From sequence record PQ505080.1: a DNA stretch of 64,000 bases. One strand, given 5' to 3'. Origin of the DNA: Escherichia phage HMD-6. Position 1 is the first letter of the stretch; every line of letters starts with the position of its first letter. The notes under the pieces are model-generated. The model was not told the origin of the DNA. It ran no database searches and was given only the letters and a program-made list of their open reading frames with translations. The translations under genes were made by a program, and so were the position numbers. Positions 2,688 to 3,561 of the stretch are shown piece by piece.

Positions 2688-3113
2688 ATGATTTATGAAA
2701 TGCCAAAACTGATTCGTGATGATGCCCAAAACGCTCACACCATTATTATGGGCAAACGCATGGATATTATTTGTCATAAAGATTTCTGGGAAGGAAGTTA
2801 CTTCACAGAGTATTTTGGTAAACTGGACAATGGTCTGCTGATCCAGTTCTACACCGATGCGGAAAACAACATTCACTGGGAGTTCGAAACTGAAGATATC
2901 CATAAACTTTTCACCTTCCTCGGTATCAAGGTTGAGGCCAAGTTTGAAGAAGGTGAGTGCGACGATTGTGGATTCTACGAGGTAACAGATTTCTATCTTC
3001 CGAGTGGTGAGAACCTTTACTATGAAAGCCACTTCGGTAACTCCAATATGCCACAGTGCTGGACTGAGTTTTTTGAAATTGTGGAAGAGGAGCTGGCATA
3101 TCGTGATTATTGA
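2688..3113 (+). CDS. hypothetical protein (141 aa)
   Basis: ORF track; GGAGAA RBS upstream. Confidence 0.6.
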   Translation: MIYEMPKLIRDDAQNAHTIIMGKRMDIICHKDFWEGSYFTEYFGKLDNGLLIQFYTDAENNIHWEFETEDIHKLFTFLGIKVEAKFEEGECDDCGFYEVTDFYLPSGENLYYESHFGNSNMPQCWTEFFEIVEEELAYRDY

Positions 3114-3561
3114 TACTGTAGAGGGAGATTTAATCTCCCTTTTTAAGAACGGTGCTGGTCACCTGATCCACGGTTGTAACTGCTTCCACACGATGGGTAA
3201 GGGTGTAGCAAAACAGATTGCCCGTGAGTTCCCTCAAGCATTGGAAGCTGATAAAACGACTACCTACGGTTGCCTAAGTAAGCTAGGTGCGTTCTCTCGG
3301 TGGGAGCACTTATCTCCGAAAGGTATTGTATACGGAATCAATCTGTACACTCAGTTCTACCCAGGGCCTAATGCTGAATATTTCTCAATTCTGAAAGGCT
3401 TTGAGCGAGTCAATGAGATATTTAAGGGATCGACTTTACCATTCTACATCCCTAAGATTGGGTGCGGCATAGGCGGCTTGAAGTGGGGACACGTGGAGGA
3501 CGTTATTAACCTTGCCACTTTTGATATAGATATTATCGTGGTGGAGTACAAAGAGTGTTGA
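3103..3561 (+). CDS. macro-domain protein (TARG1/DarG-like ADP-ribose hydrolase fold)
   Basis: Motif GHLIHGCNCFHTMGKGVAKQIAREFP resembles macro-domain signature (VNCVGVMGKGIALQFK); start chosen at GTG 3103 after GAGGAG, true start uncertain. Confidence 0.65.
   Translation: MIIDTVEGDLISLFKNGAGHLIHGCNCFHTMGKGVAKQIAREFPQALEADKTTTYGCLSKLGAFSRWEHLSPKGIVYGINLYTQFYPGPNAEYFSILKGFERVNEIFKGSTLPFYIPKIGCGIGGLKWGHVEDVINLATFDIDIIVVEYKEC

Follow-up and report, generated by a model that had tools for sequence, protein, structure and literature searches.

The macrodomain gene and its surroundings

The window analysed here, a stretch of 64,000 nucleotides (nt) from Escherichia phage HMD-6 (PQ505080.1), is part of a lytic phage genome and contains on its plus strand, at positions 3103-3561 including the stop codon, a gene for a free-standing macrodomain protein of 152 residues, which is a homologue of the bacteriophage T4 protein Tk.4, also termed AdfM. 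The presence of a macrodomain gene at this place had been proposed in an earlier note made from the sequence alone, and the profile search that the note had suggested bears this out: Pfam Macro (PF01661) matches the protein at 27.4 bits with a cut-off of 22, PHROG 335 matches at 2.2e-59, and 104 database homologues were found. The open reading frame (ORF) lies in frame 1 and extends from a GTG at 3103 to a TGA at 3559-3561. A Shine-Dalgarno element, GAGGAG, can be read from the sequence at 3087-3092, 10 nt 5′ of the GTG, and the GTG itself overlaps the stop codon of the preceding ORF (GTGATTATTGA). A longer form of 185 residues, starting at a GTG at 3004 in the mechanical ORF list, was rejected since it would overlap the upstream gene by 110 nt. 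The start at 3103 was adopted because homologues of 150-155 residues cover 100% of the 152-residue form and because GenBank relatives annotate a coding sequence of 459 nt. The motif quoted in the earlier note, GHLIHGCNCFHTMGKGVAKQIAREFP, corresponds to residues 19-44 of this protein.

The macrodomain gene is located within a plus-strand run of small ORFs. It is preceded by an ORF of 141 residues (2688-3113, plus strand), and upstream of this two-gene unit a sigma-70-like promoter was predicted by consensus match at 2537-2565 (plus strand; TTTACA-17-TATAAT, 11/12 matches). A second predicted promoter of this type (3558-3586, plus strand; TTGACA-17-TATAGT with an upstream TG, 11/12 matches) begins the next small-gene unit. 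Between positions 1 and 8000, 30 promoter-like sites were found, compared with 15.3 +/- 3.8 in shuffled sequences. The upstream ORF and the macrodomain gene are probably co-transcribed and translationally coupled, and the predicted promoter would probably place the macrodomain gene under early expression driven by the host polymerase. The upstream ORF gave no match in Pfam or PADLOC. It occurs in 176 phage records, comprising Vequintavirus and about 60 T4-like phages at about 36% identity; with just these 176 records and no evident link, it was set aside as a functional partner. No darT gene was found beside the macrodomain gene, the flanking ORFs searched (1909-2322, 2688-3110, 4270-4599, and 5052-5378) being without any Pfam family and the neighbouring ORFs without a PADLOC match.

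The 3-kb region around the gene, for which 118 records matched, is 96.5% identical to vB_EcoM_YN3 and 93-94% identical to FV3, rV5-derived, and BASEL phages. In several of these relatives, the gene is already labelled as "macro domain protein", "phosphatase", or "O-acetyl-ADP-ribose deacetylase". More than 100 published relatives conserve the gene and already carry an annotation for it, and it is an expected component of rV5-like Vequintavirus genomes.

Fold class and active-site residues

The protein is a member of the Macrodomain superfamily (PF01661) and belongs to the ALC1-like/TARG1-like class, which includes TARG1, DarG, SCO6735, Poa1p, and BT1257 and to which it is closer than to the MacroD, viral Mac1, PARG, and macroH2A classes. 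In a search of the PDB with a profile of 70 sequences, TARG1 (2e-18), DarG from Mycobacterium tuberculosis (1e-17), BT1257 (6e-17), and SCO6735 (1e-16) were ranked first, followed by DarG from T. aquaticus (5e-16) and Poa1p (2e-14), with coronavirus Mac1 reaching just 4e-3. An AlphaFold2 model obtained with 69 sequences (pLDDT 96.7, pTM 0.91) yielded TARG1 as the top Foldseek match (TM 0.78/0.85), and Poa1p, DarG, BT1257, and SCO6735 came next. With TARG1 and DarG among the top matches in both searches, the "TARG1/DarG type" named in the earlier note is right at the level of the class. DarG is also the sole match in NCBIfam (NF048014; 44.2 bits against an equivalog cut-off of 250 bits, profile positions 3-143 of 338) and in PADLOC (6.8e-13, profile positions 4-141 of 329). 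The family profile retrieves 20,403 representative proteins at E<=1e-3, 10,852 at E<=1e-10, and 1,285 at E<=1e-30, while tblastn detects homologues in 2,730 phage records, in which T4-like phages are dominant. The alignments used for the structure model and for the representative library were made without the T4 sequence.

Two loops of the active site can be assigned. The first substrate-binding loop, recognized by family conservation and by alignment to SCO6735, Poa1p, and DarG, comprises residues 23-36 (HGCNCFHTMGKGVA; 3169-3210, plus strand) with the invariant Asn26 and Gly34/Ala36. The diphosphate-binding Gly-rich loop, assigned from the alignments, comprises residues 117-126 (PKIGCGIGGL; 3451-3480, plus strand) and includes G120, G122, and Gly124. 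Gln84, encoded by a CAG codon at 3352-3354 (plus strand), occupies the position of K84 in TARG1, K80 in DarG, and Gln85 in SCO6735. In the family profile alignment, YTQ84 stands opposite ITK84 of TARG1 and GIG124G opposite GLD125R; in the alignment to M. tuberculosis DarG, YTQF stands opposite PTKK, and Gln84 faces the first Lys, which is Lys80 after correction for the tag offset. A phmmer alignment to SCO6735 (PDB 5E3B, 20-residue tag offset removed) pairs N26 with N27, Q84 with Q85, G120 with G126, and G122 with G128. Of the catalytic Lys and Gly residues that the earlier note had asked to be checked, Gly120 and Gly122 are present, and the Lys is replaced by Gln84, as in SCO6735.

These residues are strongly conserved. 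Gln is found at position 84 in 245 of 248 family sequences, T4 Tk.4 included, Asn26 is kept in 246, His23 in 242, and G120 and G122 are essentially invariant. Position 30, which is Thr here, is moderately conserved (152/248). Asp50, whose codon lies at 3250-3252 (plus strand) in an ALEADK helix, is kept in 245 sequences, and the alignments show no counterpart of it in DarG, TARG1, or SCO6735. That Gln84 and Asn26 are so widely kept speaks for selection acting on an active enzyme. As judged from the alignments, the whole T4/rV5 AdfM family is of the Gln-type represented by SCO6735 and not of the Lys-type represented by DarG or by the AdfM of phage PhiKZ.

SCO6735 from Streptomyces coelicolor is of the same class and likewise has neither catalytic Lys nor Asp, its Gln85, Asn27, Gly126, and Gly128 all being matched in the phage protein. 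Without these two residues, SCO6735 is still efficient in removing ADP-ribose from thymidine in DNA and relieves the toxicity of DarT, and exchange of its Gln85 in the Q85A variant abolishes activity (PMC9411070). In the mechanism proposed for this enzyme, which acts on protein and DNA substrates, Gln85 positions the distal ribose and the water is held by the backbone (PMC9411070). Since SCO6735 is active with Gln85 in the absence of the Lys, the missing Lys in the phage protein alters the chemistry to be expected and does not mark the protein as inactive; the reaction would probably be Lys-independent and of the SCO6735-type, unlike that of TARG1 and DarG. Despite this likeness, SCO6735 differs in its overall identity of only about 23%, in a 5-residue insertion after Gln85 (HGMKTG in the alignment) that is absent from the phage protein, and in being encoded by a bacterial chromosomal, DNA-damage-inducible gene. 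DarG/DarG2 (PDB 5M3I, 5M31, 7OMU) differs by its Lys80 and, in addition, carries a C-terminal DarT-binding domain and is encoded next to darT, whereas the phage protein is a 152-residue macrodomain alone with no toxin neighbour. Human TARG1/OARD1 (PDB 4J5R/4J5S) is of similar size and shares His23. However, its Lys84/Asp125 dyad is changed to Gln84/Gly124 in the phage protein, and it is without the Asn that is invariant in the phage family.

Homology to T4 AdfM and proposed role

T4 Tk.4 and the HMD-6 protein are 40% identical over the full length (150 residues; E 2e-41). They are of the same length and share the motifs HGCNCFHTMG, NLYTQF.PGPN, and P.IG.GIG, with Gln in the place of the catalytic Lys, and both are encoded by free-standing phage genes amid small genes. 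They differ with respect to their hosting phages (Tevenvirinae for T4, Vequintavirinae for HMD-6) and to the neighbours vs and tk.3 in T4. T4 and the window each have one place for a macrodomain of this family; a search of the 64-kb window with the family profile matched this ORF alone, with no second macrodomain. HIDEN-SEQ of T4 singled out tk.4 as the only gene that becomes essential when the host carries DarTG2; clean knockout of tk.4 renders T4 DarTG2-sensitive, and the gene was named adfM, for anti-DarT factor Macrodomain (10.1101/2025.11.20.689424). In the accessible part of this preprint, the anti-DarTG2 phenotype concerns T4 only and is the sole in vivo phenotype reported for the family (10.1101/2025.11.20.689424). 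Earlier work had found that T4 without AdfA and AdfN is still DarTG2-resistant and that NADAR-type AdfN proteins are inactive on DarT2 marks. As to a NADAR gene of the AdfN kind in the window, one phmmer query with NADAR+DUF4326, a weak test, gave only a weak 12.5-bit match to a 62-residue ORF (18035-18223) with no Pfam support.

A second phage protein named AdfM, PhiKZ gp104, which is the AdfM of chimalliviruses, is able in vitro to strip DNA of the ADP-ribose added by DarT2, and it relieves DarT2 toxicity (PMC13309987). Like the HMD-6 protein, it is a phage orphan macrodomain of the same fold class (hhalign probability 97.7%), and it counters DarTG2. In contrast to the HMD-6 protein, to which it is about 21-22% identical, it has retained a Lys of the DarG-type (within FPTKDNW, which aligns to YTQF and places the Lys at Gln84), and it is taken up into the phage nucleus. 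On their sequences, T4 Tk.4 and PhiKZ gp104 are distinct lineages, and that of PhiKZ gp104 is apparently independent, although both proteins bear the name AdfM.

Taken together, the gene at 3103-3561 encodes the Vequintavirus counterpart of T4 AdfM, a macrodomain of the TARG1/DarG/SCO6735 class that stands alone and that most likely counters DarT2-type toxins in the role of an orphan antitoxin; we give this reading a probability of roughly 0.7. The suggestion in the earlier note that the gene provides a counter-measure against DarT-like ADP-ribosylation defence gains support from this homology, because knockout of T4 Tk.4 makes T4 DarTG2-sensitive. In the proposed course of events, the protein would be made early in infection from the host-type promoter. 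DarT2 modifies single-stranded phage DNA by joining ADP-ribose to the N3 atom of thymidines within TNTC motifs, and this blocks replication. The macrodomain would grip the ADP-ribose through its Gly-rich loops, with Gln84, held by Asn26, positioning the distal ribose and a backbone-held water beginning the reaction in the Lys-independent manner of SCO6735. Hydrolysis of the bond between ribose and thymine would then release ADP-ribose and restore normal, replicable DNA.

Several points weigh against this assignment. Promiscuity is frequent among macrodomains of this class, which act on ADP-ribose substrates of protein, RNA, or small-molecule nature. The phage protein has Gln84 in place of the Lys used for catalysis by DarG and TARG1. 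The DNA groove of SCO6735 is strongly electropositive, whereas the phage protein has a predicted isoelectric point (pI) of 6.2 and is mildly acidic. Poa1p is structurally as near to the phage protein as DarG is, and its His23 is conserved there. Identity to T4 AdfM is no more than 40%, and a literature search found no experiments on this protein, on its Vequintavirus homologues, or on Vequintavirinae versus DarTG2. T4 AdfM itself is known by its knockout phenotype alone in the accessible part of the preprint, which reports no enzymatic activity (10.1101/2025.11.20.689424).

It might be argued that the protein is instead a broad eraser of ADP-ribose on protein or RNA, directed against other ADP-ribosyltransferase toxins or defences of the host, for example enzymes modifying mRNA or protein, with DarT2-marked DNA as one substrate at most. 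The top rank of TARG1 in the profile and Foldseek searches fits such a role, as do the action of SCO6735 on both protein and DNA, the very large family (10,852 representatives at E<=1e-10), and the fusion of some members to NADAR and DUF4326, for which a part in the processing of various ADP-ribose derivatives has been proposed. However, the phage protein does not have the Lys/Asp dyad with which TARG1 acts on ADP-ribose linked to Glu/Asp of proteins, the window shows no evident ADP-ribosyltransferase target, and the sole in vivo phenotype of the family in the accessible part of the T4 study is directed against DarTG2. A broad eraser therefore seems unlikely. As a further alternative, the protein might bind or hydrolyse ADP-ribose-derived immune signals such as the gcADPR or His-ADPR of Thoeris, or similar molecules, and thus blunt the NAD-derived signalling defences that the earlier note had also mentioned; among the explanations considered, this one is the least probable.

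The likeness to Poa1p raises the question of a housekeeping role. Yeast Poa1p (PDB 6LFQ-6LFU) is an ADP-ribose-1″-phosphate phosphatase of tRNA-splicing metabolism with about 25 extra residues, and its His23 and Ser30, which were probed by deposited mutants, align to His23 and Thr30 of the phage protein. A Poa1p-like ADP-ribose-1″-phosphate phosphatase, or an O-acetyl-ADP-ribose deacetylase, might clear the by-products of an NAD-consuming sirtuin/cREC/RNA-ligase module for RNA repair, and genes for such a module are present in the same genome on the minus strand. The Sir2-like gene at 54416-55177, to which the earlier note had drawn attention, is a genuine sirtuin (PF02146, 95 bits) with no match in PADLOC. 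It is accompanied by genes for a cREC_REC cyclic-phosphate-processing domain (55186-55536) and a T4-type RNA ligase 1 (55533-56468), and by an ORF of 236 residues without a Pfam family (53688-54401), whose counterpart in FV3 is annotated as nucleotide pyrophosphohydrolase. In phage V5, a neighbourhood of this make-up has been predicted to constitute an NAD-dependent RNA-repair system (Iyer et al. 2022, PMC9503650), and the traditional annotations of the macrodomain family, "phosphatase" and "A1pp", point in the same direction as Poa1p. However, about 51 kb separate the macrodomain gene from the Sir2 cluster, the two being in different transcription blocks, and the distributions are unlike, the macrodomain being found in its 2,730, T4-dominated records and Sir2 in 1,006, mostly of T5-like phages, Vequintavirinae, and phAPEC8-like phages. 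Moreover, Thr30 is only moderately conserved, and for the T4 homologue, the accessible part of its description reports no phenotype other than DarTG2 sensitivity. A housekeeping processor is thus improbable, somewhat more so than a broad eraser. For the same reasons of distance and distribution, and because Sir2 resides in a separate predicted RNA-repair neighbourhood, a functional pairing of the two genes was rejected as the principal explanation; the macrodomain and Sir2 genes are not an obvious functional pair. In the region adjoining the cluster (56512-57541, plus strand), FV3 annotates a phosphoesterase and an ATPase.

Other features of the window and the wider family

Further features of the window were recorded in passing. 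A segment of about 1.1 kb (~5540-6630) is without an annotated gene in the relatives and gave no Rfam family at the gathering threshold. It contains direct repeats, namely three 47-nt copies spaced 65-74 nt at 5685-5870 and 17-21-nt repeats spaced 65 or 134-136 nt at 5959-6296. Seven tRNA genes are located at 60477-61289 (plus strand), specifying Arg-TCT, Tyr, Ser-TGA, Thr, Met, and Pro together with a tRNA-like gene; FV3 annotates five. The tRNA-like gene is 99 nt long (60946-61044) and was assigned a four-base anticodon (atcc) by ARAGORN, its match to the Rfam tRNA family reaching just 35.5 bits. The first exon of the large terminase corresponds to an ORF at 62393-62821 (plus strand), which ends with ...VCFDEG in the Walker B region and is directly followed by a full-length group I intron (Rfam RF00028, 81.4 bits; 62809-63087, plus strand). 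At this intron site, rV5 and ECP26 harbour an extra homing endonuclease gene of the HNH or endonuclease VII type, whereas the HMD-6 intron is without an ORF. Finally, 16-18 GenBank records designated "Campylobacter phage" (MG0656xx, host C. jejuni) are about 93-94% identical to HMD-6 at 2000-5000 and 62000-64000, which suggests that they are mislabelled or contaminating phage sequences.

Some long members of the macrodomain family are fusion proteins. One of them, P0169 (472 residues), combines Macro, NADAR, and DUF4326 domains, another, P0244, combines DUF4326 and Macro, and both are of the Gln-type. As NADAR erases ADP-ribose attached to guanine in DNA in the manner of DarG1, its fusion to the macrodomain fits a role in the reversal of ADP-ribose adducts. 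DUF4326 has been viewed as a rhodanese-phosphatase-like domain processing ADP-ribose phosphates (Iyer et al., PMC9503650). It may tentatively be proposed, at slightly less than even odds, that the T4/rV5 AdfM proteins form a large, almost entirely phage-borne, Lys-less lineage with invariant Gln84, Asn26, and Asp50, which would erase thymidine-linked ADP-ribose in the manner of SCO6735. Its recruitment would have been separate from that of the Lys-type PhiKZ AdfM, and its fusion to NADAR in certain viruses would yield one polypeptide that erases DarT1 marks as well as DarT2 marks.

The family and the probable function of its T4 member have already been published; the modest addition to the literature consulted is the Gln-type nature that the alignments assign to the family as a whole. 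Because Gln and not Lys would be employed in T4/rV5 AdfM, the reference for its mechanism would be SCO6735 rather than DarG. If the assignment to the AdfM family holds in function as well, rV5-like phages, which are used for typing of E. coli O157 and are candidates for therapy, would carry an enzymatic escape from DarTG2, and this would bear on the prediction of their host range.
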